Source: Schaalia odontolytica
GTDB taxonomy: Bacteria > Actinomycetota > Actinomycetes > Actinomycetales > Actinomycetaceae
Reading direction: 5' to 3'
Assembly (NCBI RefSeq): GCF_005696695.1
Contig: NZ_CP040006.1
Location: forward strand, 120,001 to 152,000
DNA length: 32,000 bases
Position numbers and translations under genes: made by a program. This document shows, piece by piece, positions 6,525 through 30,694 of the stretch. Position 1 is the first letter of the stretch. Every line of letters starts with the position of its first letter. The notes under the pieces were generated by a model. The model was not told the DNA's origin. It saw only the letters and a program-made list of their open reading frames with translations, and did not search any database.

Positions 6525-6541
6525 TGTCGTGGACGAGGTCA
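6525..6541 (+). repeat. Third, partial (17-bp) copy of the islet boundary repeat
   Basis: TGTCGTGGACGAGGTCA is identical to 9922-9938. As at 5016-5018, its TCA (6539-6541) is the stop codon of the minus-strand gene ending here. Confidence 0.7.
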
Positions 6542-6910
6542 GCTTGATGAGGAGGGGGTCACGGCTGTGATCTGCGTGTTCCCCGTCGGAACAGGGGCCG
6601 TGTACTTGTGGTTGTATTCGTCGTTGTAGCGTTGGATCTCGCGCATGACGTCCGCCACCGCGTCGTCCGTGCACTTGAAGTCCTCTGTTGCGGCCGCTAG
6701 GCCCAAGTAGATGCCGTTCAGGATCCACGCCATGTGGTTGAGTGTTGAGTTCAGAGCCGTGACGTGTTTGCTCAGAGTTGCATCGTGTTCGCTGCCCGTG
6801 TCGGATGTACTGAGGGCTGGCGTCTTCCTGAGTTCTGCGCACGCGTTGCTGAGCTTCGCAATGATCGAATTAACTTCGTCGTAATTCCATTCGAGAACGA
6901 CGTAAGTCAT
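6539..6910 (-). CDS. Small helical protein, possibly WXG100/ESAT-6-like (secretion-associated); function unknown
   Basis: The ORF track starts at 6961. ATG 6910 (GAGAGGAAA upstream) overlaps the upstream stop as ATGA. The ~123-aa product MTYVVLEWNYDEVNSIIAKLSNACAELRK...LGLAAATEDFKCTDDAVADVMREIQRY looks like a two-helix hairpin. No clean W-x-G motif is present. Confidence 0.6.
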   Translation of the reverse strand: MTYVVLEWNYDEVNSIIAKLSNACAELRKTPALSTSDTGSEHDATLSKHVTALNSTLNHMAWILNGIYLGLAAATEDFKCTDDAVADVMREIQRYNDEYNHKYTAPVPTGNTQITAVTPSSSS

Positions 6911-7596: not shown

Positions 7597-8122
7597 TGCG
7601 CACCTCCAGGCTCATGATGATCGCGAGAACGTCATCGTTCAGGTCGCCGAAAGCGGGTGTCGTCATCGTCGCAGTCGCCGTGAGGAGGAAGTCATTCCCG
7701 CCGTCGGAATGAATCCACGCCCACTGGCAGGCGGTGATGGGGACGCTGCCCTGAATGTAGATTCCCGTGCGCAGGTGTGAAGATTCGGGTCGCGCCGGCC
7801 ACTCGCAATCCTCCAGCATGCGAAAGCCGGGAACCTGATCGGACATGGACTGTGCCGAGTCGGCGAGCGCCTGCGCGGGCGTCGTGCTCGCGGGGATAGG
7901 GGAGGCAAGCACGAGGAGGGTGGGGGTGAAATCGTAATCGGCATCGATGGGGCCGACGGCGAGGGCGATAACGCCACCTTCGGCCGGATGCTGATCGCTG
8001 TCTGGCGTTCGCTCTTGCGCGTCGCCGGCGCTCCCGAATGCCTGGTTGAGGATCGAGGAGATCTCCTCCTTCGGGCACGACGACCAGCGGGGAGGCATCA
8101 GCCAATAGGTCGACAGACTCAT
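7589..8122 (-). CDS. Hypothetical cytoplasmic protein (~177 aa); possible adaptor/chaperone (alpha/beta sandwich pattern)
   Basis: The ORF track starts at 8134. ATG 8122 overlaps the paralogue 1 stop as ATGA and has GGGGGA upstream. The C-terminal pattern GFRMLE...RTGIYIQGSVPITACQWAWIH...FLLTATATMTTPAFGDLNDDVLAIIMSLEV is reminiscent of DUF1795/LpqN-like folds (weak, by eye). Confidence 0.6.
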   Translation of the reverse strand: MSLSTYWLMPPRWSSCPKEEISSILNQAFGSAGDAQERTPDSDQHPAEGGVIALAVGPIDADYDFTPTLLVLASPIPASTTPAQALADSAQSMSDQVPGFRMLEDCEWPARPESSHLRTGIYIQGSVPITACQWAWIHSDGGNDFLLTATATMTTPAFGDLNDDVLAIIMSLEVRNA

Positions 8123-8559
8123 GGTGTCCCCCATCCCTGATCGTTGTCAGCGGACTCCTCGTCGTCCTCCGAAAGCTCGAACTGCGGGAGGGGATCGCCG
8201 TTCTCGTCCAGCATTCCGTGGCGCTTCATGTACTGGTACCGAGCGTCGGCCCAGCGGGGAATAGGCAATGGAGAAAAACGCCAGATCAGAGAAATGAGTA
8301 TGACAAGCAAGGTGAGGATAAGTAGAGAGTTGATAACGAGGTTTGGCAATTTAAGCTCGTTGCATATGATGACGATGGCTGCAAAAATGAATACGACTCC
8401 TGTTGCGGGGAATCCGATGGCATCTGACTTAGGATGTGCGTGAAAGGTTGTGCTAATAAAGCGTGAATTCTTCCCGTATGACGTATCCGTGAAGGTCTGA
8501 ATGTACCATGTCGCTAAAATAACTGTTCCGAATAGAAGGGCAAGTATTCCCAATAACAT
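8119..8559 (-). CDS. Small 3-TM membrane protein, paralogue 1; putative cognate immunity protein
   Basis: 146 aa, beginning MLLGILALLFGTVILATWYIQTFTDTSYGKNSRF. ATG 8559 lies 2 nt after the toxin stop, and its GGAGGA RBS is formed by the last codons of the toxin gene. The tail is [39 protein letters not shown]. Confidence 0.8.
   Translation of the reverse strand: MLLGILALLFGTVILATWYIQTFTDTSYGKNSRFISTTFHAHPKSDAIGFPATGVVFIFAAIVIICNELKLPNLVINSLLILTLLVILISLIWRFSPLPIPRWADARYQYMKRHGMLDENGDPLPQFELSEDDEESADNDQGWGTP
8166..8259 (-). repeat. Conserved 94-bp 3' gene module, copy in paralogue 1
   Basis: CCTCCGAAAGCTCGAACTGCGGGAGGGGATCGCCGTTCTCGTCCAGCAT...CCCAGCGGGG is shared with the three other paralogues. 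Confidence 0.85.
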
Positions 8560-8561
8560 TA

Positions 8562-9749
8562 TTATCCTCCGTGAATTGCTGTGTGTATCCCGTTGTTCGC
8601 TAGGTCTGCTAGGTAGCTTCCGGTGGCGCTTCCAATAAGTCCGCCAACTACTCCTCCGATAATTCCTCCAGCAAGAATGCCGACGGGGCCTCCGAATGCG
8701 CCAATGGTAGCGCCGATTTTTGCGCCTGCGACACCACCTGCGAAACCTAGTCCGCCGCTGGCACCGCCCTTGAGACCGGCTCTTGCTACCTTCTCGCCCT
8801 GTCCCATCTCCGGGTGGTGGTAGGAGTCCGACTGGTAGCTGTCGTAGGCGCTGACGACTCCGTCGAGGACCGCGCAGGCGCGGCCTGCGACTTTGCCGCC
8901 AATGCGCAATGCGTCGGCGGTCTTGATCGCTCGACTGCCGCCCTTGACGGCGTCCACCCCCGGGACTTTCCAGTTCTTGAGGTTCCCTCGCTCGGTGATC
9001 TGCTTCCAGGGGGACGCGTCTTTGATTCCGGCCGGCGCCTGGTACTTGGCGCCCTTCGCCTGTAGATAGACCGACTCGATCCCGTCTGCGAGGGTATTGC
9101 GCATGGTGTCCGCCCAGCCCGGTAGGCGAGCTGGCACATTCAACCCCGTGGGGAATCCGTACGTGCCGACGAATTTGTTGAACACGGGGAGGAGGGTCGA
9201 CTCCCAGACGGTGGGGTCGATACCCGCGAGGTCGTCGCCGAACAGTGTTTCCGCGTAGGCGAACTTCCTCTGGTTGATCTCGCAGCGTGAGCGCAGCGAC
9301 GCGAAGAAGGCGCCAACGCCGCCCGGGACGTTTGCTGGGTGGCTGATGGTCACTTTCGTTCCGTCACGAGAAACCGTGAGCCCGGCGCCGCTGGCGTCGG
9401 TGACAATGGCTCGAAACTCTGTCCTGATGGGTTTCAGGGTGCCCCCGTAGTCCTCCAGGGCGGATTGCAGCGAGCGGAAACATGACAGCGCATGCTCGCT
9501 CGCGGAGATGACATTCGTCAGGTGCTCGACGACGGTCTCCACCAGCCTGGCTCTCTGATGTTCGACCATCCCTCGGGCGGCCGTCGCGTCGCCAATGGCC
9601 TCGTCGAGTGCCGCGATCGGTTTGTCGCACTGGTCCTTCAGCGACAGGATCGCGTCCACCTTAACCGGAAAGTCCCACGAAAAGGACTCGGCGAATTCTA
9701 CGGTTCCTGCAGATGTGGGAACCGTTGAGGTGGCTGGAAGGGGGGGCAT
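8562..9749 (-). CDS. Putative secreted polymorphic toxin: helical N-terminal region plus C-terminal glycine-zipper (membrane-inserting) module
   Basis: The ORF runs to 9797 (411 aa). ATG 9749 has GGAG 7 nt upstream, giving ~395 aa. No Sec signal peptide. The N-terminal ~100 aa is helical (VKVDAILSLKDQCDKPIAALDEAIGDATAARGMVEHQRARLVETVVEHL...). The C-terminal ~60 aa is GGASGGLGFAGGVAGAKIGATIGAFGGPVGILAGGIIGGVVGGLIGSATG, a GxxxG/A zipper. Confidence 0.75.
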   Translation of the reverse strand: MPPLPATSTVPTSAGTVEFAESFSWDFPVKVDAILSLKDQCDKPIAALDEAIGDATAARGMVEHQRARLVETVVEHLTNVISASEHALSCFRSLQSALEDYGGTLKPIRTEFRAIVTDASGAGLTVSRDGTKVTISHPANVPGGVGAFFASLRSRCEINQRKFAYAETLFGDDLAGIDPTVWESTLLPVFNKFVGTYGFPTGLNVPARLPGWADTMRNTLADGIESVYLQAKGAKYQAPAGIKDASPWKQITERGNLKNWKVPGVDAVKGGSRAIKTADALRIGGKVAGRACAVLDGVVSAYDSYQSDSYHHPEMGQGEKVARAGLKGGASGGLGFAGGVAGAKIGATIGAFGGPVGILAGGIIGGVVGGLIGSATGSYLADLANNGIHTAIHGG

Positions 9750-9917
9750 TGCTTCACTCCGTTGGAACAATCGGGCGACATGCGTGTTGCGCATCACTTA
9801 TTGGTCAGCGTACTCCGGTTGTTTAACAATCTGCAGTGAAACCTGGCCGAAAAGTGCCGACGAATGATGTCGCCTGAGGTCGTGAGCGGATTTCCCATAC
9901 CGCCAGTGGCTGGAGTT

Positions 9918-9948
9918 TGCGTGTCGTGGACGAGGTCACCTCGGTGGG
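9918..9948 (+). repeat. 31-bp direct repeat, copy at the distal end of the islet
   Basis: TGCGTGTCGTGGACGAGGTCACCTCGGTGGG; see 4998-5028. It lies in the divergent intergenic region between the toxin gene and the 9964 gene. Confidence 0.85.
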
Positions 9949-12267: not shown

Positions 12268-13578
12268 TCAATCCGCGAGCAGGTCAAGCAGGTGAGAGAC
12301 AACCTTTCCGCCCGAATAGGCGGAACCGTCGTGCTGGTACTCATTCGTGATGTAGTGGCGAGCGCCGATCAGCTCACCCGTCTCCACGGACAGCTCACGC
12401 GGCACGAACATGTCGTCGTAGTACACGGCCGCAGCCACCGGCACCGTGTTCTCGGCCAGCACATCCGGCAGGTACACGGGCGCCGCCTCCGTCGTCGACG
12501 CGAGGATCTCCGCGACGCCCTTCAGCGGCGCTAAGCCCGGGTCCTCGTCGTAGACGCGGCGCATGAAATGCTCGCCCGTCAGGTAGAACGGCTCGCTCTC
12601 ATCCAGAGGGTTCGCGTCCTTCGCGAAGCCCGGGATCTCCTCGGCCAGGCGATCCGCCGCCCAGCCCGTCGCCGTGCCCACCAGGTCCGGCGTCGCGCAC
12701 GCGTAGATGTACTCCTGGAACACGGCGTAAATCGGTGCGACGTCCACCTGCGAGCCGATCGCCGCCAGGAACTGCGACGAGAGACGTCGCTCGCCTCGAA
12801 CCGACGTCCACGGACCCTCGAGCAGGTAGTGCAGCTGATCCGTGTTGCCCTGGCCGCCCAGCATCATGCCGATCATGCGCAGGCGCGCGGGGGAGAGACG
12901 CTCGCCCGTCGGCAGCGTCTCCTCCGTGTCAGCCAGGTGCGCGCACAGCTCGCGCACCGTGCGCTCATCGCCCGGGTGGCGCTGGAAGTACGCGCGGTTG
13001 CGCGCCGCCGTGCGCTCATACGTCAGACGGTAGATCTCGTCCACATGGACGAGGCCGGGCAGACCTCCCGTGATCAGGCTGGCCTTCAGGCCCTGGGGAG
13101 CCAGCGACAGGTACGAGGTCGTGATAAAGCCGCCGAAAGACTGGCCGAGCGTCGTCCACGGGTCATCCCCGCACAGCTCGCGGCGCAACGCCTCCGCGTC
13201 GTACACGATCTGATCCTGGCGGAAGTGGCGCAGGTACGCGGCCTTCTCCTCGTCCGTATCCAAGTGGGAGAGCGCCTGGGCGTCCATGCGGGTCGACTGG
13301 CCCGTGCCTCGCTGATCGAGGAGCACCACGCGGTAATCCTGCAGGAGACGATTCATCCATCCGCCGGTAAACGTGCCGAAACGCGGGCTCGGGTAGCCCG
13401 GGCCACCCTGGAGAAACACCGCGTAGGGAGCGTCCTCGCGGCCCTTGCGCACGACCTCGCGCGCGAAAACCTGAATCGTCGGGTTGTCCTCGCCAGTGGG
13501 GCGCAGGTGATCAAGGGGAACGTCCAGGCGGTGTTCGTAAACGGTGTGACCGTGGTGCAGGTACGACTCTGTGTGCAT
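12268..13578 (-). CDS. Alpha/beta-hydrolase, S33 prolyl aminopeptidase-like
   Basis: The ORF track extends to 13779 through repeat DNA. ATG 13578 gives MHTESYLHHGHTVYEHRLDVPLDH.... Motifs: FLQGGPGYPSP (GGPG oxyanion region), DQRGTGQS, and the nucleophile elbow GQSFGG. Confidence 0.8.
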   Translation of the reverse strand: MHTESYLHHGHTVYEHRLDVPLDHLRPTGEDNPTIQVFAREVVRKGREDAPYAVFLQGGPGYPSPRFGTFTGGWMNRLLQDYRVVLLDQRGTGQSTRMDAQALSHLDTDEEKAAYLRHFRQDQIVYDAEALRRELCGDDPWTTLGQSFGGFITTSYLSLAPQGLKASLITGGLPGLVHVDEIYRLTYERTAARNRAYFQRHPGDERTVRELCAHLADTEETLPTGERLSPARLRMIGMMLGGQGNTDQLHYLLEGPWTSVRGERRLSSQFLAAIGSQVDVAPIYAVFQEYIYACATPDLVGTATGWAADRLAEEIPGFAKDANPLDESEPFYLTGEHFMRRVYDEDPGLAPLKGVAEILASTTEAAPVYLPDVLAENTVPVAAAVYYDDMFVPRELSVETGELIGARHYITNEYQHDGSAYSGGKVVSHLLDLLAD

Positions 13579-13646
13579 GGACACAATGGTAGCGGTTTTG
13601 CGGCGGTGCCGTTGTGGTCGTTTGTTGTCCCGTCTGTTTTCTGGGC

Positions 13647-14295
13647 GCTGCTTGTGGCCCCACGGGTGTTCCGGGCGCCGGAGGGCCCGGCCGCCCGCGA
13701 GGCTAGGCGTCCTCACTTCGTTCGGCGCCGCGCCTCGAAGCCCGCCCGTGCCCTCCGGTCCCTCCGGCGCCCTCCACACCTGTGGGGCTGGATCGCTGTG
13801 CTAGCCCGGCCAGGCCCCGCCGCCGCCCACGGGCACCGCAGCCTGGCCCTCAGGGTCCTCCGGTGCCCTCCACACCGGCGGCGCCTGGTCGCTGTTGTCT
13901 GGTTCGGTGCGTCGTCTCGAAGCCCGGCCAGGCCCCGCCGCCGCCCACGGGCCCGCAGTCAGGCCGTGCCAACCAGGCGGCCGGTTGTCTGAAACCGGTG
14001 TCGCCATTGCTCGTGCCTGCCTGCGTAGGGTTGAAACCGTCATCGCCTTTGCGGGTGCGAAATGGGTGTTTCTTAGTGCAGTTTTCGGGTGCAGAGGTGA
14101 TGTCGGTTTCAACGGTCCCTTGTCGGGGGTGAGCAGTGGTGTTGTTGGTTTCAACGTCGCTACGTTGTCGCACCTCGTGCGCGAAAAAGTTCGCCCTGCT
14201 TGGCCTGATGTGTGCGTGAGCGCGAAAAAGTTCGCCCTGCACGCTCAAAACACCCCAAAATCGGCGTTTTTACATTTGCTGGGCGAGTTTTTTCG
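13647..14295 (+). repeat. Long intergenic repeat element, copy 1 (GC-rich 5' module plus GAAACC/GGTTTC hairpin module plus 3' module)
   Basis: Collinear with 28127-28968 by hand alignment. Shared blocks include GGTGTTCCGGGCGCCG, GGTTCGG(T/C)GCGTCGTCTCGAAGCCCGGCCAGGCCCC, GTTGAAACCGTCATC(G/A)CCTTTGCGGG, GCGCGAAAAAG(T/G)TCGCCCTGCT and TGCTGGGCGA. Confidence 0.8.
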
Positions 14296-14720
14296 CGCCA
14301 ACCCCACCTGCGCCGATCTTGGATGCAGCGCCGCGCACTTCAGGCTGGCTGCCGATGGGGGTTTTGCAGCATTAGGAACTGGCTGTCGGCGTGTCGCCGG
14401 CGTGTCACACCCCTAATGACGCCATTCCCCCCGTTGCGTGGTGCTGAGGTTGCGGCGTGAGGGGGTGGACGCATCGATTGTGCTATTCAGCGCTGTAGGC
14501 GAGGCGGATGCGAGGCGGATCTGGTCGCTGGACCCCACTACTGGCACCCTTAACCCGCTAATGCGCAGCTAAACCCTATTGGTGGCATGGTGGGCAGGCC
14601 GCCCAGGGCGCCACCCATCGGGTTAACGTGCGCATGAAGGGGCCCAGGCCGCCACCTATCGGGTTAACGTGCGCGTAGGTCGGCCCTGGCGGTCCGAGCA
14701 GCTGGAGCCCAGCCAGCTCG

Positions 14721-15050
14721 TCAGAGCCAGTTGAGCAACGCGACGTAGCAGACCGTTCCGATGCCGACGCTCCACAGGAGCTTGCGGCCGCTCAGCAGGT
14801 GCGCCGCGACCGTCACCCCCGCCGCCACCAGCGCCGCCCACCAGCGGCCACCCGCCGCCTGCGCTCCCTGCGTCAGCGTGGAGAGCACCAGAATCAGCAT
14901 GATGCCCGGCGGCATCCACACCGCCATGTCGGAGACGAAACGCGAGTCGCGCAGCGGCTCGAGGATCTTGAACGGCAGAGCACGCAACGTAAAGTCGATG
15001 ACGAAGGTGATTGCCAGAAGCGCCAGCAGGTAGCCCAGCGTCGGAGTCAC
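14721..15050 (-). CDS. azlD: Branched-chain amino acid exporter small subunit AzlD-like
   Basis: 109-aa hydrophobic protein. Its GTG start overlaps the azlC stop (GTGA). The position and size are typical of AzlD next to AzlC. Confidence 0.8.
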   Translation of the reverse strand: MTPTLGYLLALLAITFVIDFTLRALPFKILEPLRDSRFVSDMAVWMPPGIMLILVLSTLTQGAQAAGGRWWAALVAAGVTVAAHLLSGRKLLWSVGIGTVCYVALLNWL

Positions 15051-17700: not shown

Positions 17701-18358
17701 CGTCATCTTCGAGGGCCGCAACCTCGTACGCATCCTCGAGGGCCTGGGCGTCACCGTCGGCATCTCCGCGCTGTCCGTCGTGCTGTCGCTGGTGCTCGGC
17801 GTGTTCGTCGGCCTCGGCATGCGCTCGCGCTGGCGAGTCCTGCGCTGGCTCATGCAGCTCTACCTCGAGTTCGTGCGCATCATGCCCCAGCTCGTCCTCC
17901 TGTTCGTGGCCTACTTCGGGCTCACGCGCGTCGCGGGGATCAACCTGGACGGCATCACGGCGTCCGTCCTCGTCTTCACCCTGTGGGGCGGTGCCGAAAT
18001 GGGTGACCTGGTGCGAGGCGCGCTCATCGCGATCCCCCGCCACCAGTACGAGTCCGCCTACGCTCTGGGACTCACCCCGAGGCAGACCATGCGCCGCGTC
18101 ATCCTGCCGCAAACCCTGCGCAGGCTTGCGCCCCCGGCCGTCAACCTCATCACCCGTATGGTGAAGACGACGTCCCTCGTCGTGCTCATCGGCGTCGTCG
18201 AAGTCCTCAAGGTTGGACAGCAGATCATCGACGCCAACCGCTTCAACTACCCGACCGCCTCGCTGTGGATCTACGGCCTGATCTTCGTGCTGTACTTCCT
18301 CATCTGCTGGCCCATCTCGCTCCTCTCACGCCACATGGAGAAAACATGGCAGAACTGA
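17681..18358 (+). CDS. Amino-acid ABC transporter permease, second subunit
   Basis: 225 aa with a 20-nt overlap with the upstream permease. EAA-loop-like segment ESAYALGLTPRQTMRRVILPQTL. Confidence 0.9.
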   Translation: MADLGINVIFEGRNLVRILEGLGVTVGISALSVVLSLVLGVFVGLGMRSRWRVLRWLMQLYLEFVRIMPQLVLLFVAYFGLTRVAGINLDGITASVLVFTLWGGAEMGDLVRGALIAIPRHQYESAYALGLTPRQTMRRVILPQTLRRLAPPAVNLITRMVKTTSLVVLIGVVEVLKVGQQIIDANRFNYPTASLWIYGLIFVLYFLICWPISLLSRHMEKTWQN

Positions 18359-19113
18359 CCTCCGACCCGCAGCTGCGTCTCGTCGACCTTGACAAGACCT
18401 ACCCCGGCGGCCATCACGCCCTGCGCGGCGTCTCCCTCGACGTCGCCGACGGCGAAGTCGTCGTCATCATCGGCCCCTCCGGCTGCGGCAAGTCCACACT
18501 CCTGCGCACGATCAACGGCCTCGAGCCCATCAACTCCGGGCAGATCCTCTTCGACGGGACCGACCTGGCGGCCCCCGGCGTCTCCTGGCCCGATGTCCGC
18601 CGCCGTATCGGCATGGTCTTCCAGTCCTACGAGCTCTTCCCCCACCTGACCGTCATGGGGAACCTGACGCTCGCCCCCGGCCTCGTCGCGGGAGAATCGC
18701 GCGCCGACGCGAGCGCGCGGGCGCTGAAACTACTTGAGCGCGTCGGCCTGGCGGACCGCGCCGACGACTACCCGCGCCAGCTGTCCGGCGGCCAGCGCCA
18801 GCGCGTCGCCATCGTGCGTGCGCTCATGATGGACCCCGAGATCCTCCTCCTCGACGAGGTCACGGCCTCCCTCGACCCGGAGATGGTGCGCGAGGTCCTC
18901 GACGTCGTCCTCGAACTGGCTCGCACCGGCATGACGATGCTCATCGTCACCCACGAGATGGGCTTCGCCCGCGCGATCGCGGACCGCATCGTCTTCATGG
19001 ACGAGGGCCGCATCGTCGAGGTTGACCCGCCGCGCAAGTTCTTTGCGGACCCGTCCTCGGATCGTGCGCGCAAGTTCCTCGATATCTTCAGCTTCGAAGG
19101 CGCCAAGCTGTAA
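18346..19113 (+). CDS. Amino-acid ABC transporter ATP-binding protein
   Basis: The ORF track starts at 18265 inside the permease. ATG 18346 (GGAG upstream) gives MAELTSDPQLRLVDLDKTY. Walker A GPSGCGKST, signature LSGGQRQRV, Walker B ILLLDE. Confidence 0.92.
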   Translation: MAELTSDPQLRLVDLDKTYPGGHHALRGVSLDVADGEVVVIIGPSGCGKSTLLRTINGLEPINSGQILFDGTDLAAPGVSWPDVRRRIGMVFQSYELFPHLTVMGNLTLAPGLVAGESRADASARALKLLERVGLADRADDYPRQLSGGQRQRVAIVRALMMDPEILLLDEVTASLDPEMVREVLDVVLELARTGMTMLIVTHEMGFARAIADRIVFMDEGRIVEVDPPRKFFADPSSDRARKFLDIFSFEGAKL

Positions 19114-19145
19114 GGGTGTAGGAGCTCCTCGCGGAGGGGCTTGAG

Positions 19146-19185
19146 CGGGGGCGCAGGCTGGTGGCTTGCGCCCCCGTTGTTGTGC
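19146..19185 (+). terminator. Probable intrinsic terminator of the ABC operon
   Basis: CGGGGGCGCAGG ... CTTGCGCCCCCG stem (11 of 12 pairs) followed by T-rich GTTGTTGTGCTTGTT. Confidence 0.55.
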
Positions 19186-19500
19186 TTGTTGCTGTGCGCC
19201 CGGGATGTGTTCTGGGTGCCGGAGGGGTTGGCCTTGCTGGGCCCGGCTGCTTGGTGCGCCCGTGGGCGGCGGCCCGCCCGCGAGATCGCCACACGCGAGC
19301 CTTCGGCTCGGAGTGATCGATCAGATGCCCGGCCAGGCCTTGCCGCCGCCCACGGGCGCCGCAGCCTGGCCCTCCCGCCCGTGTTCTCGGTCCCACCGGC
19401 GCCCTTCCAACAGCAGGGGCTTCGTGTTCTGCTGGGATGTCTAGCCAGGCCTTGCCGCCGACCACGGGCGCCGCAGCCTGGATCACCAGTGTTCTGGTCC
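19182..19500 (+). repeat. Long intergenic repeat element, copy 3 (5' GC-rich module only)
   Basis: Shares CGTGGGCGGCGGCCCGCCCGCGAGATCGCCACACGCGAGC...CTCGGAGTG(A/G)TCGATC with 28264-28325. It carries two copies of CCAGGCC(TT/CC)GCCGCCG(C/A)CCACGGGC(G/A)CCGCAGCCTGG, as also seen at 13808-13848. Confidence 0.75.
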
Positions 19501-19526
19501 GGCACCTTCCGCGTTATGGCTTGTTC

Positions 19527-19549
19527 CTAAGTGGTGTGACACCACTTAG
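19527..19549. promoter_or_regulatory. 23-bp perfect palindrome CTAAGTGGTGT-g-ACACCACTTAG
   Basis: 11-bp arms around a single central base. This is too tight for an RNA hairpin, so it is more likely a dimeric protein-binding site. It contains the same GGTGT core as the neighbouring repeats. Confidence 0.5.
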
Positions 19550-19573
19550 CGGGGTATTACACCAGCTCGGAGG

Positions 19574-19626
19574 TGGTGTAATGCTCCCTAACTGGTGTAA
19601 TGCTCCCGAATTGGTGCAATGTCGCG
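19574..19626 (+). repeat. Three tandem 19-bp units TGGTGTAATGCTCCC-nnnn (third unit degenerate) plus an inverted copy ATTACACC at 19556-19563
   Basis: Unit starts are at 19574, 19593 and 19612, read directly from the sequence. Confidence 0.7.
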
Positions 19627-19643
19627 CAGGTGCCGTTGGGGCT

Positions 19644-19785
19644 CGCGGATAGGAAACGGCTACGTGGATAGGTTACGAGGATCCGGATAGGTTACGACGA
19701 TGCGGATAGGTTACGAGGATCCGGATAGGTTATGAGGATCCGGATACCTTAATAACCTATCCGCATGTACGCAACCTATCCGTGT
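19644..19785 (+). repeat. Iteron-like array: six direct 19-bp units (consensus CGGATAGGTTACGAGGATC) followed by two inverted copies
   Basis: GGATAGG occurs at 19646, 19665, 19684, 19703 and 19722, and GGATACC at 19742. Inverted CCTATCC occurs at 19756 and 19775. Unit junctions create ATCCGGAT palindromes. Confidence 0.8.
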
Positions 19786-19938
19786 AGGGGGCTGGGTTGG
19801 ACTGGGGGGCGTGCACCTGGCCGTCGAGGTGCCTATTCGCGTAGCGGCCCGGTGCCCTGCGTGGTGATCCGGTGCATTGAGCACGCGCGAGAGTTGAGAC
19901 TGCGCGAGTAGAGCCCACCCGCGACAGAATTTCCCGTT

Positions 19939-20985
19939 TCAGCCGATCAGCGTCGACTGGTGGTGCACCATGATCAGGCGCGATTCGCCAGACGTCGCCG
20001 GCGCCCACACGCTGGATTCCAGCGACGCGCCGCCCTCCCAGCGCACCCGGTAGCGCGTCAGGAACGACCCGCCCAGGTCGTGCGCGTCGATGCGGCCGAT
20101 CGCCGGGGAAGCGGGCGAGGGGCCCGCCAGCGTCGTGGTCGCGCCGCCACCCGGCCAGATGCGCGTCGTGCGCTCGTCGGTCATGGCCGCCAGTGCCTCC
20201 TCGTCGCCGCCGGTCCACGCCAGGATGAACTCGCGCTCGCGGGCGACCGCATCCTCGGTGGTCGGAGCGCTCACGGACGAGGCTGGGGCCGCCTCCGCTG
20301 GTTCAATCGGCTCAGCAGAAGCAGAGAAAACGCTGGGATGAGAACGGAATGTCGACGTGGCGGCCTCGTCGGTGGAGGTGTCGTGTGAAGCGGGAGCGCT
20401 CCCTTGGGCATCAGTAGTAGCGGGCACGTTGTGCGGCTCGACGGACGTGGGCGCAGAGGTAGCACCCCCGGATGCCTGATCCGCCGACGCAGTGCCACGT
20501 GACGCAGTGCCACGCGACGCGCCGCCCCCGAACCCGGGGCCCGGCTCGGGCGTGCGCCCAGCCTGGTAGGCCTCGGCGCATGCGCGCGCGAGGTCGTCGG
20601 CCCGCTCGTTCATATGGTGCCCAGCGTGGCCCTTGACCCACTCGAAGGTGACGCGGCGCCCCTCCATGGCCCGATCGATCTCCTGGATGAGCTCCAGGTT
20701 CTTGATGGGTTTCTTGTCGGCCTTCGTCCAGCCGCGCTTCTTCCAGCCGAGCCGCCACTTGGATACGACGTTGATCGCGTACTGCGAGTCGGCGAGGATG
20801 TGCAGCTCTTCGCCGGTCTCGGCCGTGGCCTCGAGCAGACGCAGAATCGCGGTCAGCTCGCCTAGGTTGTTGGTGCCCTGCGGCCAGCCGCCCGCGTCCC
20901 ACGTGTCCTCGTCCACGTACCAGGCCCACCCCGCGGGCCCAGGATTGCCGAGGGAAGAACCGTCCGCCGCCGCCGTAATCGTCAT
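19939..20985 (-). CDS. rnhA: RNase HI fused through a low-complexity linker to a C-terminal NTF2/SnoaL-like (DUF4440-like) domain
   Basis: The N-terminal ~150 aa has type 1 RNase H hallmarks: MTITAAADGSSLGNPGPAGWAWY...TNNLGELTAIL...ILADSQYAINV...WVKGHAGHHMNERADDLA. An S/T/A/P-rich linker follows. The C-terminal ~100 aa (EREFILAWTGGDEEALAAMTDERTTRIWPGG...RYRVRWEGG...LIMVHHQSTL) is assigned by eye only. Confidence 0.85.
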   Translation of the reverse strand: MTITAAADGSSLGNPGPAGWAWYVDEDTWDAGGWPQGTNNLGELTAILRLLEATAETGEELHILADSQYAINVVSKWRLGWKKRGWTKADKKPIKNLELIQEIDRAMEGRRVTFEWVKGHAGHHMNERADDLARACAEAYQAGRTPEPGPGFGGGASRGTASRGTASADQASGGATSAPTSVEPHNVPATTDAQGSAPASHDTSTDEAATSTFRSHPSVFSASAEPIEPAEAAPASSVSAPTTEDAVAREREFILAWTGGDEEALAAMTDERTTRIWPGGGATTTLAGPSPASPAIGRIDAHDLGGSFLTRYRVRWEGGASLESSVWAPATSGESRLIMVHHQSTLIG

Positions 20986-21112
20986 GCCCTCATCCTATCG
21001 GCATCCCGCTTGCCTGATCGGAAGGGGGACGAGGCCGGGGCCGCCTCAGCCTCGTGCCCTAGACTCTGGGGTGGGCGTGGTCGCGCCCTTCGCTGCACAG
21101 ACGAGGACGGAG

Positions 21113-22474
21113 ATGACCATGAGTACACACAACGGTGAGAAGCGTGAGACGGGTGCCGACGAACAAGAGCAAGGCAGCTCGAAGAAACCGGATCGTTCCC
21201 GCCGATGGGCTTTCCTGACGCTCGCTCTCCCGATTGCGCTGCTCGCGTGGAGTTGCGTTCCGAAGGCTTCCCTGCCGGTGACGCCGACCAACAAACTGGC
21301 CATCGGGGATGCCGTCATTGCTGTGCAGCTGGGTGAAGCACAATCGCAGTCGGGCCTTGAATCCCCAATTCAGAACAACTTGGTTGCACTTGTTGACATG
21401 CAAGGGGAGCAGGATATCGTGCGTATCGGCAACCAGTGGGAAGGTAGGATCCTGTGGTCTGATCGCGGTATCTCCTTCGGTGCCGACCAATGGGAGTACC
21501 AGACGACAGAAAACGGAACGAGTAGCCAAGAAATTAAGGACTGGCGGGCCTCGAACGTCCAGCGTTATGAGTTGTCGGATGGTCGATTCATCGTGGTTTC
21601 TTACTCGTCAGACTTGGGCTATCGGGTCGATACGATCGAACGTGATGGAAGCGTGACGAGTGTGTCAACTCCCGGAACGCGCGGGGACATGGGGCAGTGT
21701 GGGGATCGGATCCTGTCGATCGTTGACACGAAGCAATTCCCGCGTGTGAGAACGGAGGCTTTCGAGGCTTACGCCGCACAGTCGGGCGGCGATGGCGAGC
21801 AACCGGAGGAGCTGTCTGTCGTCATTCAGTTGAATGATCGCGATGGTGACACTCCTCGGATCATTGGCGTCGCGCCAATGATCGACGGCTTGGTGTCGGG
21901 ACAGAGAGAGTTCGCCTGTGAGGGGGACGTGATCACGATGCCGAGCGTCCAAACGGGCGACTCTCGAGTCGTTCGTGTGATGGCAGATGGTGGAGAGACG
22001 GGAACGATGGTTCTCGAGCGCTGGGATCTGGCGACTGGGGAGCGCACGATTATTCCCGTGGTCGACGAGCAGGAAAATCCCATCGAAGTGAACAGGGACC
22101 GCAGCATTTTCGACTATCAGGGGATCCAGGTCGGTGATGAGTACCGGTTCATCAGTGAAGGCGGGGATGCGTTTGCAGTGGACCTGAGGAGCGGTCGAGG
22201 CCGCTACCTGTTCTCTTATTCCGGTACACGAATCAACCAGCGAATGGTGTACCAGGTGAGTGAGACGGGCGTATACGCGCTCGAGGGCCGCCGGGAGGAT
22301 CACAATGTCACCCTCTCTTACCGGCCGTGGGATGGGGGAGCATACCGGGACGTCATCACAATGGACAAGCTGGCAGACTACGTCTGGTTGGAAGGCGGTT
22401 TCATGTCGTCGGGCCACTGGCGAAGGATTCAGTCGTTCTCTCTGCGCCCCGGCTGGGATGGCGGCGCGCAGTAA
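21113..22474 (+). CDS. Hypothetical exported protein, paralogue A (twin-arginine-like signal plus lipobox-like Cys); beta-rich body of unknown family
   Basis: The ORF track starts at 20633, antisense to rnhA. ATG 21113 or 21119 gives M(TM)STHNGEKRETGADEQEQGSSKKPDRSRRWAFLTLALPIALLAWSCV.... The C-terminus IQSFSLRPGWDGGAQ is shared with paralogue B. Confidence 0.75.
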   Translation: MTMSTHNGEKRETGADEQEQGSSKKPDRSRRWAFLTLALPIALLAWSCVPKASLPVTPTNKLAIGDAVIAVQLGEAQSQSGLESPIQNNLVALVDMQGEQDIVRIGNQWEGRILWSDRGISFGADQWEYQTTENGTSSQEIKDWRASNVQRYELSDGRFIVVSYSSDLGYRVDTIERDGSVTSVSTPGTRGDMGQCGDRILSIVDTKQFPRVRTEAFEAYAAQSGGDGEQPEELSVVIQLNDRDGDTPRIIGVAPMIDGLVSGQREFACEGDVITMPSVQTGDSRVVRVMADGGETGTMVLERWDLATGERTIIPVVDEQENPIEVNRDRSIFDYQGIQVGDEYRFISEGGDAFAVDLRSGRGRYLFSYSGTRINQRMVYQVSETGVYALEGRREDHNVTLSYRPWDGGAYRDVITMDKLADYVWLEGGFMSSGHWRRIQSFSLRPGWDGGAQ

Positions 22475-22607
22475 CGTTGTTCGGTTGTCCGGGGTTCCCG
22501 CTCGGTCGGGACGTCACTCGATGGGACGAGGACGGGGCAGCCTCGGCCTCGTGCCCTAGACTCTGGGGGTGGGCGTGGAAGCGCCCGCTGCCGCGATGAG
22601 AGGGAAG

Positions 22608-23963
22608 ATGCGCATGGGGGAACGCCTCGACGAGCTTTGTGAGACGGCTGCCGACGAGCAGGAGCATGGCCACCCGAAGAAGCCGAAGCGTTTCCGCCGA
22701 TGGGCTCTCCTCGTCGTCGTGCTCTCGGTTGCCGCGCTGGCGTGGAGCTGCGTTTTCCATGGGGGATTGACCAGAAAACCGGCTAGTTTTCTCGCGACGA
22801 ATGACGCGGTCGTTGCCGTGCGTCTGGGGTCCGGATGGTCCACGGTGGCCGAGGATTTTCGGTATAACGACTATGACGGCTGGATCGTGCTTCTCGACGC
22901 CGACGGGCGCGGCCAGGTTGCTGCCGTGAACAATGTGCTTGATGGCGATGTGGTGTGGAATGAGCGGGGCGTCTTCTACGCGGCGTCTTCTCACGACTTC
23001 CTCACGACCCAGGCGGGAACGCAGGAAATTGGACGAGGAGACCGCAGCGACGAGCGTCAACGCTATGCACTCCCCGATGGCGCGCTCGCGGTTGTGAGTG
23101 GTGAAGAGTTTGGGTATGAGGTTGACACCGTCCACGTTGATGGACGTGTGGCGAGCGTCGAGAATGACAAGACAGGAGGCTCTGTCGGGCAGTGTGGGGC
23201 GCGGATCTTGGCGATCACCGACACGAAGGAGTCTCGCGGCATCAGTGCCGCAGCGTTCGCGGCGTATGCTGCTCGATCGGGCGACGAGAAGCCGCCGACC
23301 ACCCTCGCGGCTGTTGTTCAGCTCAATGACCACGATGGCGAGGAGTCTCCAGTCCTCGCGGTAGCGCCGATGATCGACGGCTTGGGGTCGCGACAACACA
23401 TGTTTGCCTGCGAAGGGGACGTCATCACGATGCCGACCGAGCTGTCGGACGAGGCCGCTGCCTCAAGCCATGGTTCGACGAGCGAGCGGCAGCGAACGGT
23501 GGTTCTTGAGCGGTGGGACCTGTCAACGGGTGAGCGCTCGATCATTCCCGTCCTCGACGAGGCCGGCAACCCCCTTGAGTTGAATGATGAGCAGGGCGTT
23601 TCCGAGTACGAGGCGATTCGCGTGGGCAACGAGTACAGGTTCGTGTCGTGGGGTGGGGATGCTTTCGCTGTCGACCCGGCGAGTGGCCAGGGACGTTACT
23701 TGTTTTCGCTTGATACGCCAACGTATGGGCCGGACGGATACTTGGCGACCTTCCAGGTGACCGAGACCGGCGTCTACGCGCTGAAGGATCGTCGCTCTGA
23801 CCGCGTCGTGACCCTCTCGTACAGGCCCTGGGAAGGTGGCGAGTGGCGTGACATCTTCACGACCCGTGACCTGGCCTATTTCCTCAAGAAAGGCGAGTTG
23901 ACGCCGACGGCGGACATCCAGTCCTTCGCCCTGCGGCCCGGCTGGGACGGTGGCGCGCAGTAA
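22608..23963 (+). CDS. Hypothetical exported protein, paralogue B of 21113..22474
   Basis: ATG 22608 (GAGAGGGAAG upstream; ATG 22614 is also possible) gives MRMGERLDELCETAADEQEHGHPKKPKRFRRWALLVVVLSVAALAWSCV.... It is collinear with paralogue A through shared GQCG.RIL, VVQLND.DG, APMIDGL, FACEGDVITMP, LERWDL.TGER.IIPV, GDAFAVD, TLSYRPW and LRPGWDGGAQ. Confidence 0.75.
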   Translation: MRMGERLDELCETAADEQEHGHPKKPKRFRRWALLVVVLSVAALAWSCVFHGGLTRKPASFLATNDAVVAVRLGSGWSTVAEDFRYNDYDGWIVLLDADGRGQVAAVNNVLDGDVVWNERGVFYAASSHDFLTTQAGTQEIGRGDRSDERQRYALPDGALAVVSGEEFGYEVDTVHVDGRVASVENDKTGGSVGQCGARILAITDTKESRGISAAAFAAYAARSGDEKPPTTLAAVVQLNDHDGEESPVLAVAPMIDGLGSRQHMFACEGDVITMPTELSDEAAASSHGSTSERQRTVVLERWDLSTGERSIIPVLDEAGNPLELNDEQGVSEYEAIRVGNEYRFVSWGGDAFAVDPASGQGRYLFSLDTPTYGPDGYLATFQVTETGVYALKDRRSDRVVTLSYRPWEGGEWRDIFTTRDLAYFLKKGELTPTADIQSFALRPGWDGGAQ

Positions 23964-28089: not shown

Positions 28090-28092
28090 GCT

Positions 28093-28122
28093 TTCCTGTT
28101 CCTGTTCCTGTTCCTGTTCCTG
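28093..28122 (+). repeat. Hexanucleotide microsatellite (TTCCTG)x5
   Basis: Five perfect tandem units starting 4 nt after the patatin stop codon. Confidence 0.95.
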
Positions 28123-28126
28123 TGGT

Positions 28127-28968
28127 GGTGCTTGTTGCGCCGCTGGTGTTCCGGGCGCCGCGTGTGCTTTGTGGGGCCGGGCTGCCCGCGTGATTTCCAG
28201 CCGCCGCCTGATCTCCGGCCGCCGCGTGGCCTGCTGTTTTTGGGTGTGTCTGCTCTGTGCGCTCGTGGGCGGCGGCCCGCCCGCGAGATCGCCACACGCG
28301 AGCTTCGCTCGGAGTGGTCGATCTCGAGGCCCGCCCTGGCCCTGCCGCCGCCCACGAGCGCCGCAGCCACACTCCTATTGCCCCGCAGGCCCTGCGGTGG
28401 TCTCCAATCGGGCGGGCATGTGTGTGCCCTGGCCCCGCCGCCCACCGGCACCGCGGCCAGGCCCTCCGGTCCCTCCGGCGCCCTCCACACCAGTGGTGCC
28501 TGGCGTGCTGCTGACATGTGGTTCGGCGCGTCGTCTCGAAGCCCGGCCAGGCCCCATAGGCCAGGCGGTTCGGTTCTTTGAAACCCCTGTCGCCTTTGCG
28601 CGCTCGTACGTGCCTGGGGTTGAAACCGTCATCACCTTTGCGGGCCGGCGAGGTGCGCCAGTTGAAACCACCATCGCCTTTGCGGCTATGAAACGGGCGA
28701 TTTTGGTGCGTTTTTTGGTTGCAGTGGTGACGGTGGTTTCAACGGTTGCTATTCAAGGGCGCGCAGTGGTGATGGGGGTTTCATGCTGACCTGCAGCAGC
28801 GGTCGTAGAGGTGTCATTGGTTTCAATATCGCCACGTCGCCGCTTCCTGCGCGCGAAAAAGGTCGCCCTGCTCGGTCTGATGGTGGACGCGAGCGTGACT
28901 ATATTCGCCCTGCAGGCGAAAAAGTACCCAAAATTGGCGTTTTATGGCGTGCTGGGCGAATTTTGTAC
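28127..28968 (+). repeat. Long intergenic repeat element, copy 2 (the longest; three nested hairpin arm pairs)
   Basis: Collinear with 13647-14295 and, in its 5' third, with 19182-19500 (hand alignment). Confidence 0.8.
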
Positions 28969-29063
28969 CGGATGCGCTGATGAAGGGCCTGTGTCGGGCG
29001 AGTTATGTCCCGGACCTTGCATCTAGGGCCTCTTGCTGCCGATATGTTCCTGGATCTGCGGGA

Positions 29064-29079
29064 CGACTAGATGTTGCCC
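29064..29079. promoter_or_regulatory. NrdR-box-like site
   Basis: cgaCTAGATGTTGccc fits the core pattern C-w-A-n-A-T-n-T-w-G of the published 16-bp NrdR box consensus (acaCwAtATaTwGtgt). Confidence 0.4.
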
Positions 29080-29137
29080 CACGATCTCGTGCTATCTGGC
29101 CGATCTGTTTCTCGGTCTGCGGCGCGCCCAGATGCGC

Positions 29138-29178
29138 CCCCTAGATGTAGGGCTCGTGTCGGCCCCTAGATCTAGGGT
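29138..29178. promoter_or_regulatory. Two NrdR-box-like sites (29138-29153 and 29163-29178)
   Basis: cccCTAGATGTAGggc and cccCTAGATCTAGggt. The second contains the perfect 14-bp palindrome CCCTAGATCTAGGG. Confidence 0.5.
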
Positions 29179-29274
29179 GCGCCTCCCGTTGGAGGCGCGC
29201 GTGGGTGCCTCGCTCAGACCCCATGCGACCGCCTTTCCGCATGATTCCGGCCATTTCGCCAAAAATGCCACTCA

Positions 29275-29323
29275 CCCCTATATCTAGGGGCGCTTAGTCG
29301 CCAACGACCCCTAGATGTGCGGG
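29275..29323. promoter_or_regulatory. Two NrdR-box-like sites (29275-29290 and 29308-29323), centres 33 bp apart
   Basis: cccCTATATCTAGggg and cccCTAGATGTGCggg. The tandem spacing is close to the ~31-32 bp typical of paired NrdR boxes. Confidence 0.5.
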
Positions 29324-29454
29324 TGCGACACGCCCAAGAGTGCCACCAAAGAGTGTGACGCTCGACATCTTTCAGGTGGTTGGCAGGTGGTTATGCACAG
29401 GGTGGTGATGCGCTCGTCCACAGGGTGCACAGGTGTGTGTGAGGGTGGTGGAGA

Positions 29455-29470
29455 CCCCTAGATGTGCCCG
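29455..29470. promoter_or_regulatory. NrdR-box-like site
   Basis: cccCTAGATGTGCccg, nearly identical to the 29308-29323 site. Confidence 0.4.
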
Positions 29471-29613
29471 TGGGTTAGTCGCAAACCCCAATGTTTGCGC
29501 GCATCTTCGCGCACCTGTGCGGAGGGGGCGACAAATCGCAAAGGCCTCTCCGAGATCCTGACCGCTCGCTCCATCCACAGACCCCTCCTGCCTCGTCCAC
29601 AGTTGGGGCGGCG

Positions 29614-29629
29614 CACACAACATCTAGGG
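29614..29629. promoter_or_regulatory. NrdR-box-like site nearest to nrdH (about 115 nt upstream of the start)
   Basis: acaCAACATCTAGggg; the left half matches the consensus aca-C-w-A exactly. Confidence 0.55.
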
Positions 29630-29744
29630 GGCGCTTGCGTGGGCGGCCACGAGGTGTAGTGTTGTCGTGTTCGCGGCGAACGAGCCGCCAGAAAGACAAC
29701 ACAGGATGCCAACGTCCGGCCTCGAGCCGCAAGGAGACACGAAC

Positions 29745-29996
29745 ATGTCGATCACCGTCTACTCCAAGCCCCGCTGCCCCCAGTGCGACGCGACCTACCG
29801 CGCCCTCGACAAGCAGGGCGTCTCCTACGAGAAGATCGACGTCACCCAGGACGCGGAATCCCTCGCCTTCATTAAGGGCCTCGGCTACCAGCAGGCCCCC
29901 GTCGTCGTGGCCGGCGAGGATCACTGGTCCGGCTTCCGCCCCGACCGCATCAAGGCCGTCGCTGCCGCAGCTGCCCCCCTGGCGCTGCAGGCCTGA
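29745..29996 (+). CDS. nrdH: Glutaredoxin-like protein NrdH
   Basis: The ORF track starts at 29667. ATG 29745 has AAGGAGA 7 nt upstream and gives MSITVYSKPRCPQCDATYRAL..., with the CPQC redox motif and the NrdH signature WSGFRPD. Confidence 0.93.
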   Translation: MSITVYSKPRCPQCDATYRALDKQGVSYEKIDVTQDAESLAFIKGLGYQQAPVVVAGEDHWSGFRPDRIKAVAAAAAPLALQA

Positions 29997-30277: not shown

Positions 30278-30694
30278 ATGGGCATCGTCGTCTACTTCTC
30301 GTCGGCGACGGGCAACACCCGCCGTTTTGTCGAAAAGCTCGGCCTCCCGGCGGCGCGAATCCCGTTGCTTCCCAAGGATGAACCCCTGCGCGTGACCGAG
30401 GAGTACGTGCTCGTCGTGCCCACCTACGGCGGCGGAAATCTCAAGGGAGCGGTGCCCAAACAGGTCATCAAGTTCCTCAATGACCCCGACAATCGGGCCC
30501 TGTGTAGGGGCGTCATCTCGTCGGGAAACACTAACTTCGGCAAGGCCTACTGCATCGCGGGCGACATTATCGCGGCCAAGCTGGGGGTCCCCCACATGTA
30601 TAAGTTCGAGCTCCTCGGTACGCCCGAGGACGTCTCCAGAGTTCGCGAAGGACTGGAACAGTTTTGGCAGAAAACTACACCGACACAGGCGTAG
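30278..30694 (+). CDS. nrdI: Flavodoxin-like NrdI
   Basis: [23 protein letters not shown]...VPTYGGG... is a typical NrdI N-terminus, and the gene lies between nrdH and nrdE. Confidence 0.93.

Follow-up and report, generated by a model that had tools for sequence, protein, structure and literature searches.

The 32,000-nt stretch of the Schaalia odontolytica XH001 chromosome analysed here (contig NZ_CP040006.1, positions 120,001 to 152,000; hereafter the window, with positions counted from its first letter) contains three long gaps between genes, at 13579-14720, 19114-19938, and 28090-29744. Their lengths of 1142, 825, and 1655 nt amount to approximately 3.6 kb of gene-free DNA, close to the 3.5 kb or so claimed in an earlier note made from the letters of this DNA. 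The first gap lies between an alpha/beta hydrolase gene (12268-13578) and azlD (14721-15050), both on the minus strand; the second separates an amino-acid ABC transporter ATPase gene (18346-19113, plus strand) from an RNase H gene (19939-20985, minus strand); and the third extends from a patatin-like gene ending at 28089 to the nrdH-nrdI-nrdE genes starting at 29745, all of which are on the plus strand. Part of the third gap (29020-29740) is the upstream region of nrdHIE, which has its own palindromes and is separate from the repeat described below.

Each gap carries one copy of a repeat element, namely copy A in the first, copy C in the second, and copy B in the third. The earlier note had proposed by eye that these three largest gaps hold collinear copies of one element in the same orientation, and a computed MAFFT alignment together with a repeat finder upholds this proposal: copies A, B, and C are homologous, collinear, and all on the plus strand. 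The A region (13647-14295) and the B region (28127-28968) align collinearly over their full length in MAFFT with 71-89% identity per block, while the similarity of 19182-19500 (copy C) is confined to the GC-rich 5' part of A and B, so that its description as a 5'-only copy also stands. The refined limits are 13649-14298 for the core of copy A, which is followed by modules X (14300-14440) and Y (14515-14680), 28129-29012 for copy B, and 19183 to approximately 19515 for copy C. Three motifs of the elements occur in the window far more often than expected, i.e., GCGCGAAAAAGNTCGCCCTGC with four matches (0.02 expected), GTTGAAACCNNCATCNCCTTTGCGG with four (0 expected), and GGCCAGGCCNNGCCGCCGCCCACGGGC with five (0 expected), and a scan of nine unit consensus sequences over the 32 kb detected no units outside the three gaps. 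The three regions are copies of a non-coding modular interspersed repeat family of oral Schaalia bacteria.

Every full element of this family is a chain of 0.6-1.4 kb made up of long imperfect foldback hairpins in a fixed order, and at all loci the mapped modules follow the order Ha..Hb-(I/S/G)n-F(n)-L-R(n)-T(n)-E(m)-X-Y. The head Ha, at the 5' end of the family, begins with TGCTTGTGGCCCCACGGGTGTTCCGGGCGCCGGAGGG (also TGCTTGTGGCCCCAC or TGCTTGTGGCCCCACGGGTGTTCCGGGCGCC; TGCTTGTTGC in copy C) and pairs with Hb (CCGGCGCCCTCCACACC.GTGGGGC); the distance between the two is 64 nt in copy A and approximately 340 nt in copy B, where I, G, and S units are nested. The G units are GGCCAGGC...GCCTGGCC stems around CCGCCGCCCACGGGC and represent the duplicated GC-rich stem motifs previously noticed in the 5' module. 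In the central module, n F units (TGAAACCGCCATCGCCTTTGCGG) in direct orientation lead to an apical loop, beyond which roughly the same number of R units (GCAGAGGTGATGGCGGTTTCA) follow inverted, with F/R numbers of 2+2 in copy A and 3+3 in copy B; the GAAACC/GGTTTC hairpins that had been described here are these F/R foldback arrays, and their motifs are above chance. The 3' module is organised alike, with n direct copies of the T unit (GCGCGAAAAAGTTCGCCCTGC) separated by a 36-nt loop from m inverted copies of the E unit (TGCTGGGCGAGTTTTTTCGCG). Both motifs that the earlier note had assigned to this module are present above chance, but they are not separate features, being the two arms of one hairpin.

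The arrays contain from 1 to at least 9 units, whose spacing is 41-42 nt for T (107 of 112), E (80 of 89), F (64 of 68), and R (72 of 76). Of 57 innermost F-R hairpins, 54 measure 83 nt, and of 70 innermost T-E hairpins, 68 measure 85 nt; in both, the loop lengths are constant while the loop sequences vary. The 21-nt units hold a small palindrome, GCGAA-N4-TTCGC. Common ancestry of the F/R and T/E units was considered as the source of the 42-nt period and rejected, because their alignment scores fall within the shuffled null. The layout of the T/E hairpin (A-tract, G+C-rich stem, and T-tract) is similar to that of a bidirectional terminator. In 68 aligned copies its stem comprises 9 bp (UUCGCCCUGC / GCUGGGCGAG) with one U.U mismatch, followed by 5-6 U, and it thus has the G+C-rich stem and U-run of an intrinsic terminator, together with a structured 36-nt loop that is atypical. 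A simple terminator scanner run on copies A and B left the T/E hairpin uncalled and made terminator calls at chance rate.

The individual modules could be placed on the plus strand of each copy. In copy A, the head hairpin Ha/Hb (13649-13790; -93 kcal/mol, z = -5.9) forms a stem of approximately 34 bp around an inner hairpin and is followed by GC-rich units at 13791-13985, which were located by the repeat finder and a motif scan (G at 13808-13848, an Hb-like unit at 13856-13884, S at 13901-13925, and a second G at 13926-13964). Next come the central foldback array at 13990-14153 (F at 13990-14012 and 14032-14054; R at 14091-14111 and 14133-14153) and the 3' foldback array at 14179-14298 (T at 14179-14199 and 14220-14240, the 36-nt loop, and E at 14277-14297). 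The two tail modules of copy A are optional in the family: X, a hairpin of the form GGGGG..CATTAG / CTAATG..CCCCC, follows E in approximately one third of the members, and Y, which contains TTAACCCG / CGGGTTAA hairpins, follows E or X in at least ten other loci. The GC-rich part of copy B (28129-28544) includes Ha at 28129-28165, Hb at 28471-28499, and S at 28520-28544, with an I unit (28265-28345) and two G-like units (28333-28373 and 28426-28464) nested between Ha and Hb. Its central array (28579-28825) has F units at 28579-28601, 28621-28643, and 28663-28685 and R units at 28721-28741, 28763-28783, and 28805-28825, and its 3' array (28851-29012) has T at 28851-28871, a degenerate T at 28893-28913, and E at 28950-28970 and 28992-29012, again with 42-nt unit spacing. 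Copy C consists of the GC-rich part alone, with I at 19262-19330 and G at 19331-19371 and 19443-19483.

Long open reading frames (ORFs) cross the elements and had been regarded as non-coding. Consistent with this, eight such ORFs gave no match in Pfam, and a GC3-based gene finder called no gene inside any of 82 elements of the family and detected no codon-position signal. Searches of the window against Rfam at gathering score revealed no match, including to group II intron domains, HEARO/omega RNAs, and Actinomyces-1, and at E <= 5 only two chance matches were observed, both outside the elements. A tRNA/tmRNA scan found none, a sigma-70 promoter scan of copies A and B detected no promoter-like site in or upstream of them, and blastn against 72,556 plasmids and 50,697 phages yielded no match. 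When the two unit motifs were scanned on viral contigs, only 3 matches were obtained, each at the edge of the fetched locus, compared with 109 bacterial loci, and there is thus no sign of a phage-borne family. With no Rfam, phage, or plasmid match and no coding signal, the copies are not fragments of a known IS, prophage, or gene, in agreement with what had been suggested before.

Hallmarks of mobile elements were also searched for. There are no whole-element terminal inverted repeats, as the 3' ends (E, X, and Y) have no inverted counterpart of the 5' end, and the inverted repeats of an element are internal to each module. The junctions of A, B, C, and other elements, where the 3' boundary varies and no clean empty site is available, show no direct repeat indicative of a target-site duplication. 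A tblastn search of 0.98 Mb of partial Schaalia genomes with three approximate Y1 transposase queries gave chance matches only (E > 2). A CRISPR array was rejected because the 21-nt 'spacers' are conserved (identical over the nine units at locus L059) and the arrays split into direct and inverted halves. On the other hand, traits of two known repeat types are present, namely the 21-23-nt conserved cores that form imperfect palindromes in intergenic DNA, as in REP/BIME, and the constant module order with a variable number of tandem internal units, as in BOX-type elements. A description of the family was not found in the searchable literature on Schaalia, Actinomyces odontolyticus, XH001, repeats, MITEs, and non-coding RNA.

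To place the family among other genomes, the 21-mer of the T unit was located in GTDB contigs representing one genome per species, where it occurs at 109 loci. Nearly all of these belong to Schaalia/Pauljensenia or 'Actinomyces sp.' (about 100 loci in about 25 species genomes), and one genome has 19 and another 15 21-mer-positive 8-kb blocks. Six non-actinomycete loci (in Parvibaculum, Hydrogenophaga, Brucella, Robiginitomaculum, an alphaproteobacterial MAG, and a Ruminococcaceae MAG) lack all other modules of the family and were set aside as chance matches. Two matched records bear the names Xylanimonas cellulosilytica 352_XCEL and Sanguibacter keddieii 250_SKED; since the matched loci share synteny with the window, the records are probably mislabelled. 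The family is restricted to the lineage of Schaalia/Pauljensenia, the Actinomyces odontolyticus group. The view of the elements as a modular multi-copy family is borne out by these approximately 100 further loci, in which module order and polarity are identical and unit numbers variable, with as many as nine identical T units at L059. Independent isolates and metagenome assemblies carry the same elements at the corresponding sites. GC-rich-only copies like C stand alone at other loci too, and the head is tandem or nested (Ha Ha) at L030 and L056. An autonomous parent, i.e., an ORF between family ends, was also sought, and the sole candidate (L004) was rejected since it maps as two separate elements flanking a 361-aa ORF.

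Elements keep their positions from species to species, with site groups of 5-10 members, and orthologous copies are 84-87% identical compared with 75-80% for the paralogues A and B. Such persistence at the same site, together with orthologues being closer than paralogues, implies that dispersal is old or rare. Copy C is missing from the orthologous gap in the relative L020 (95% coding identity). At site C, ten strains with identical ABC ATPase differ by whole I or G units, with short direct repeats such as GGCCTTGCCG at the breakpoints; the patatin-nrdH gaps of ten genomes with identical NrdH range from 1390 to 2345 nt and differ in their module complements. As judged from the compared sequences, unit numbers evidently change through slippage and through deletions between pairs of short direct repeats.

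Relative to shuffles, whole elements folded on the plus strand have z scores of -8.8 (copy A) and -8.4 (copy B). In the sense strand, the central and 3' modules of 39 of 39 elements fold better than in the antisense strand, the difference being 12.7 kcal/mol per 100 nt; the values are -43.3 (sense) and -28.5 (antisense) for the innermost F-R hairpin of copy A and -50.0 and -33.2 for the central array of copy B. The folds of these modules contain 687 G.U pairs in the sense strand versus 95 in the antisense strand. In ungapped alignments of the stems, G.U outnumbers A.C by 318:26 for F-R and 101:8 for T-E (419 versus 34 in total), and at positions with a Watson-Crick consensus the minority G.U and A.C pairs number 83 and 23, respectively. 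The excess of G.U arises from both C>T and A>G changes, and deamination of one strand alone is thus inadequate to explain it; C-to-T deamination of the non-template strand as the sole cause was rejected because A>G exceeds T>C (36 versus 10). The GC-rich 5' part has no G.U asymmetry and folds slightly better in the antisense strand in 33 of 39 elements.

Compensatory covariation is absent in the F-R and T-E stems, as 201 and 458 of 500 column shuffles, respectively, reach the observed pairing, and the variation in the stems is one-sided, mainly towards G.U. Therefore, support for the structure consists of palindromy, the asymmetry between G.U and A.C, and conservation of sequence. Many of the G.U pairs are family-consensus features inherited from the common ancestor. 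Between XH001 and its orthologue L020, the unit cores are identical at 145 of 151 positions (0.96), the spacers and loops at 0.78, and the third codon positions of the flanking genes at 0.83-0.94. That the cores are more alike than the flanking third codon positions implies either sequence constraint or homogenisation. A protein that recognises the units in DNA would likewise be consistent with the conserved arms and with a lattice of four DNA helical turns.

The orientation of the elements was counted over 41 orthologous site groups, into which the 82 elements collapse. In 27 groups the element shares the strand of its upstream gene and in 3 it lies on the opposite strand (binomial p = 8e-6), whereas for the downstream gene the counts are 16 shared and 14 opposite; adjacent genes have a baseline co-orientation of 0.67. 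Comparison of 27:3 with 16:14 implies that the orientation tracks the upstream gene only, and the occurrence of both orientations within one 136-kb contig suggests that the local gene rather than the replichore sets it. A terminator-like hairpin with a T-rich tail was detected within 90 nt upstream of 26 of the 38 head (5') junctions, compared with 3 of 38 control windows. The terminators preceding elements include those of tRNA genes, and their distance to the element varies from 5 to 58 nt; copy C, for example, begins 7 nt past the terminator hairpin of the ABC ATPase gene (19147-19175). Other elements begin 12-40 nt after a stop codon with no separate terminator, among them copy B, which starts 40 nt past the patatin stop codon and right behind a (TTCCTG)5 run. 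At site A, in a conserved departure from the orientation rule, the element is antisense to both neighbors in XH001 and in the orthologues. The orientation by the upstream gene, the strand-asymmetric stems, the foldback arrays on a 42-nt lattice, the recognition of the motifs as hairpin arms, and the lack of a detectable target-site duplication or terminal inverted repeat are features beyond those of the earlier note.

Several known repeat systems share parts of this design. REP/BIME sequences of enterobacteria are conserved imperfect palindromes clustered in 3' untranslated or intergenic DNA and linked with RAYT transposases, and their roles include protection of mRNA 3' ends and attenuation of transcription; the REP units are 20-40 nt long, have a conserved GTAG-type head, and alternate in orientation. 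The Schaalia family likewise has short clustered palindromes whose arms are conserved rather than covarying, but its units are arranged as n direct and then m inverted copies with 42-nt phasing. Hairpin MITEs of the ERIC/Correia type (summarised in PMC3049150) each consist of one unit of 100-160 bp bounded by terminal inverted repeats and target-site duplications, are co-transcribed with their neighbors, and form long hairpins that are processed, by which mRNA stability is altered; MITE-type ends of this kind were not found in the Schaalia family. Foldback (FB) transposons occur in eukaryotes, are mobilised by a transposase that some copies encode, and show no link to gene 3' ends. They and the Schaalia family both have long inverted arms of tandem sub-repeats, whose number varies between copies and between arms, and this likeness is architectural only.

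The BOX element of Streptococcus pneumoniae has the structure boxA-boxB(n)-boxC (Croucher et al. 2011, PMC3049150). BOX and the Schaalia family are both composite intergenic repeats with fixed end modules and variable tandem internal units, are predicted to form tight stem-loops if transcribed, are each confined to one species group, and are over-represented downstream of genes with no known mobilising enzyme (PMC3049150). The Schaalia family differs in its host lineage, in its G+C content of 65-75%, in elements that are 3-10 times longer, and in its foldback arrays of direct and then inverted units on a 42-nt lattice. Its orientation is also stricter, at 27:3 relative to the upstream gene, compared with approximately 61% of BOX elements on the leading strand (PMC3049150). 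Considering composition and host lineage, homology to boxA, boxB, or boxC is unlikely. SPRITE, another repeat of S. pneumoniae, resembles the T/E hairpin in combining a hairpin with a U-rich tract similar to a Rho-independent terminator; it is strongly enriched near gene 3' ends and between convergent genes, and its co-option as a terminator has been proposed (PMC3049150). However, SPRITE is a single duplex of about 18 bp plus a tail (PMC3049150), whereas T/E is the last module of a much larger chain and its arms are themselves tandemly repeated. The Schaalia family stands apart from all these analogues in size, foldback arrays, 42-nt lattice, orientation by the upstream gene, and strand asymmetry. 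It is apparently undescribed, and on present evidence it does not amount to a new principle.

We infer both the mobility and the function of the family. The explanation that we consider best, and to which we would give about an even chance, is that a BOX/SPRITE-like repeat family is transcribed as sense RNA at gene 3' ends and acts there as a 3'-end structure. An element would lie directly 3' of a gene on the same strand, either behind an intrinsic terminator or replacing one, and its sense-strand RNA would be made as the tail of the upstream transcript or of its read-through. This RNA would fold into very long G.U-rich helices ending in the terminator-like T/E hairpin, and the folded RNA could function as a transcription stop and insulator, or as a barrier to exonucleases, shielding the neighboring convergent or downstream units; the T/E hairpin might serve as a bidirectional terminator. 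Little RNA may extend into those elements that follow a good terminator. The family must have spread to dozens of sites in an ancestor, probably via a trans-acting mechanism, and is now inherited mostly vertically at fixed sites, with its 21-23-nt unit cores under sequence constraint. In a more far-reaching version, which appears rather doubtful to us, the elements would be host-maintained transcribed RNA domains of 0.6-1.4 kb, whose helices of about 22 bp every 42 nt would dock, or be processed by, a dedicated factor such as RNase III or a lineage-specific RNA-binding protein. If true, these domains would constitute a new class of bacterial 3'-end RNA scaffold or regulator at dozens of Schaalia genes, as opposed to inert repeats.

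The main rival to a 3'-end RNA structure, possible but clearly weaker, is a selfish non-autonomous mobile element (foldback/MITE-like or REP/PATE-like) that would be mobilised in trans, in the form of single-stranded DNA, by an enzyme recognising hairpins and preferring the T-rich tails of terminators; the orientation, the tolerance of G.T, and the conservation of the cores would then reflect recognition of one DNA strand by the enzyme. Such an element could account for the dozens of dispersed copies per genome, the lack of copy C in the orthologous gap of L020 at 95% coding identity, the conservation of both unit arms without covariation (as in transposase-recognised REP sequences), the terminator hairpins adjoining most 5' ends, and the tandem or nested heads at L030 and L056. 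However, neither whole-element terminal inverted repeats nor a target-site duplication was found at the junctions, and the distance from terminator to element varies between 5 and 58 nt. The orientation tracks the upstream gene rather than both neighbors, and persistence at the same sites across species, with orthologues at 86% identity versus 75-80% for paralogues, gives no sign of recent movement. No Y1/RAYT-like gene was found in the 0.98 Mb of partial Schaalia genomes either, which is a weak argument since the queries were approximate.

Free-standing genes for very large structured non-coding RNAs (ncRNAs), each with its own promoter, are less likely than such a mobile element, and so are arrays of binding sites on duplex DNA. 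The extreme folding scores, the G.U pairing specific to the sense strand, the terminator-like 3' hairpin, and the conserved cores would all suit ncRNA genes, which we nevertheless regard as unlikely: no promoter-like site was found in or upstream of A or B, Rfam gave no match even at permissive thresholds, covariation is absent, 5'-part-only copies such as C exist, and module content differs widely among strains at one site, which is hard to square with one defined RNA. Slightly less likely still are arrays of sites in double-stranded DNA that would be bound by a protein of the nucleoid, of segregation, or of regulation, for which 42 bp would correspond to four helical turns. The strict 41-42-bp lattice common to two sequence-unrelated unit families, the fixed loop lengths despite varying loop sequences, and the conservation of sequence rather than pairing are consistent with such arrays, but the direct and inverted units differ in a way that gives G.U on one strand (318:26 and 101:8), from which a duplex-binding protein would gain nothing; moreover, orientation depends on the upstream gene, and the elements lie at gene 3' ends, not at promoters. 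An artefact, i.e., chance GC-rich similarity, an assembly error, or diverged coding sequence, might be suspected in DNA of high G+C content with long spurious ORFs crossing the elements. It is highly improbable, given motif counts far over the shuffled expectation, identical sites in independent isolates and metagenome assemblies, and the lack of both a codon-position signal and a Pfam match.

Exact protein matches locate the window on LLVT01000001.1 of the XH001 assembly GCA_001462375.1. Schaalia (Actinomyces) odontolytica XH001 is the host of the TM7x epibiont (PMC4742689). Since it serves as a model host of Saccharibacteria, transcript boundaries in this strain matter for the published RNA-seq and Tn-seq data, and the elements are likely to affect 3' ends, read-through into neighbors such as nrdHIE, and read mapping. 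By extrapolation from the census, about 1% of the 2.3-Mb genome would belong to the family if approximately 20 T-bearing loci per genome of approximately 0.8 kb each hold. The combination of a BOX-like build, a SPRITE-like end, a foldback lattice, and strand asymmetry offers a clean system for testing RNA-level selection on repeats, and the family is worth an experiment at the RNA level. Differences in unit number among strains with identical flanking proteins might also serve as markers for strain typing. In addition, the elements break short-read assemblies, and many short-read contigs end inside element A.

Many copies of the hairpin-array repeat family are present in records deposited as 'Xylanimonas cellulosilytica strain 352_XCEL' (NZ_JVKM01...; loci L003, L012, L028, L059, and others) and 'Sanguibacter keddieii strain 250_SKED' (NZ_JVOJ01...; L025, L095, L108, and others). 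Both records also hold loci syntenic with the Schaalia window, such as L095, which includes the orthologue of site A (the gap between azlD and a hydrolase gene). On sequence grounds, the organism names of these Xylanimonas and Sanguibacter records are probably wrong. In one genome, nine perfectly identical 42-nt T units (the direct unit of the 3' foldback array of the family) lie in tandem on the minus strand of L059 (4712-5026), where a tRNA gene and its terminator are located directly 5' of the element and small coiled-coil-like ORFs come next after it. Among the azlD-bearing metagenome and Logan contigs (L137-L142), many stop within or just short of element A; the hairpin-array repeats evidently break short-read assemblies.

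Shorter repeats were also observed near copy C. Directly adjoining it, at 19530-19625, are 19-nt short repeats of the GGTGTAATGCTCCC type, whose place is taken by a different 19-nt tandem repeat (GATCGGGTGCACTGCCACT, approximately 6560-6680) in L020, a related locus that lacks copy C in the orthologous gap. A second kind of foldback array is found at 19645-19790, with CGGATAGGTTA units on a strict 19-nt lattice (five or six direct units followed by two inverted ones), and the number of units varies among strains with identical flanking proteins. Arrays of at least three CGGATAGGTTA units were present in 10 of the 110 sequences examined. A related CTGGATAGGAA array, consisting of three direct and three inverted units, occupies the same site in nine other strains but is missing from strain XH001.

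Copy B is preceded by a (TTCCTG)5 microsatellite (28092-28121), which lies between the patatin stop codon, directly 5', and the head of the copy, just 3'. Upstream of nrdH (29745-29996), nrdI (30278-30694), and nrdE, several palindromes of the CCCTAGATnTAGGG type occur at 29020-29300 and also at 29620-29645, with a spacing that is often 25 nt. They resemble NrdR boxes and account for part of the DNA beyond the right end of copy B that the earlier note had counted as gene-free.

Compared with the syntenic locus of Actinomyces sp. HMSC035G02 (L091), the window has approximately 4.9 kb of extra DNA at 5027-9920, with a direct repeat of 31 bp at its two ends (4998-5028 and 9918-9948, 97% identical) that adjoins nrdF (3931-5019, minus strand). 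G+C content falls to 46-56% in this insertion, which contains the internal paralogous repeats D1 and D2, and a Pfam scan of six minus-strand ORFs within it gave no match. It looks like an integrated element.

The stretch 21026-23963 contains two paralogous genes in tandem (21119-22474 and approximately 22569-23963), 71-72% identical across repeat blocks D5 and D7. Pfam scanning of the long ORFs spanning them (20633-22474 and 22569-23963) returned no match. Only one copy of the gene is present in Actinomyces sp. HPA0247 (L024). Each paralogue is preceded by a 46-nt leader containing a hairpin (21026-21071 and 22523-22568), and the two leaders are 93% identical to each other.
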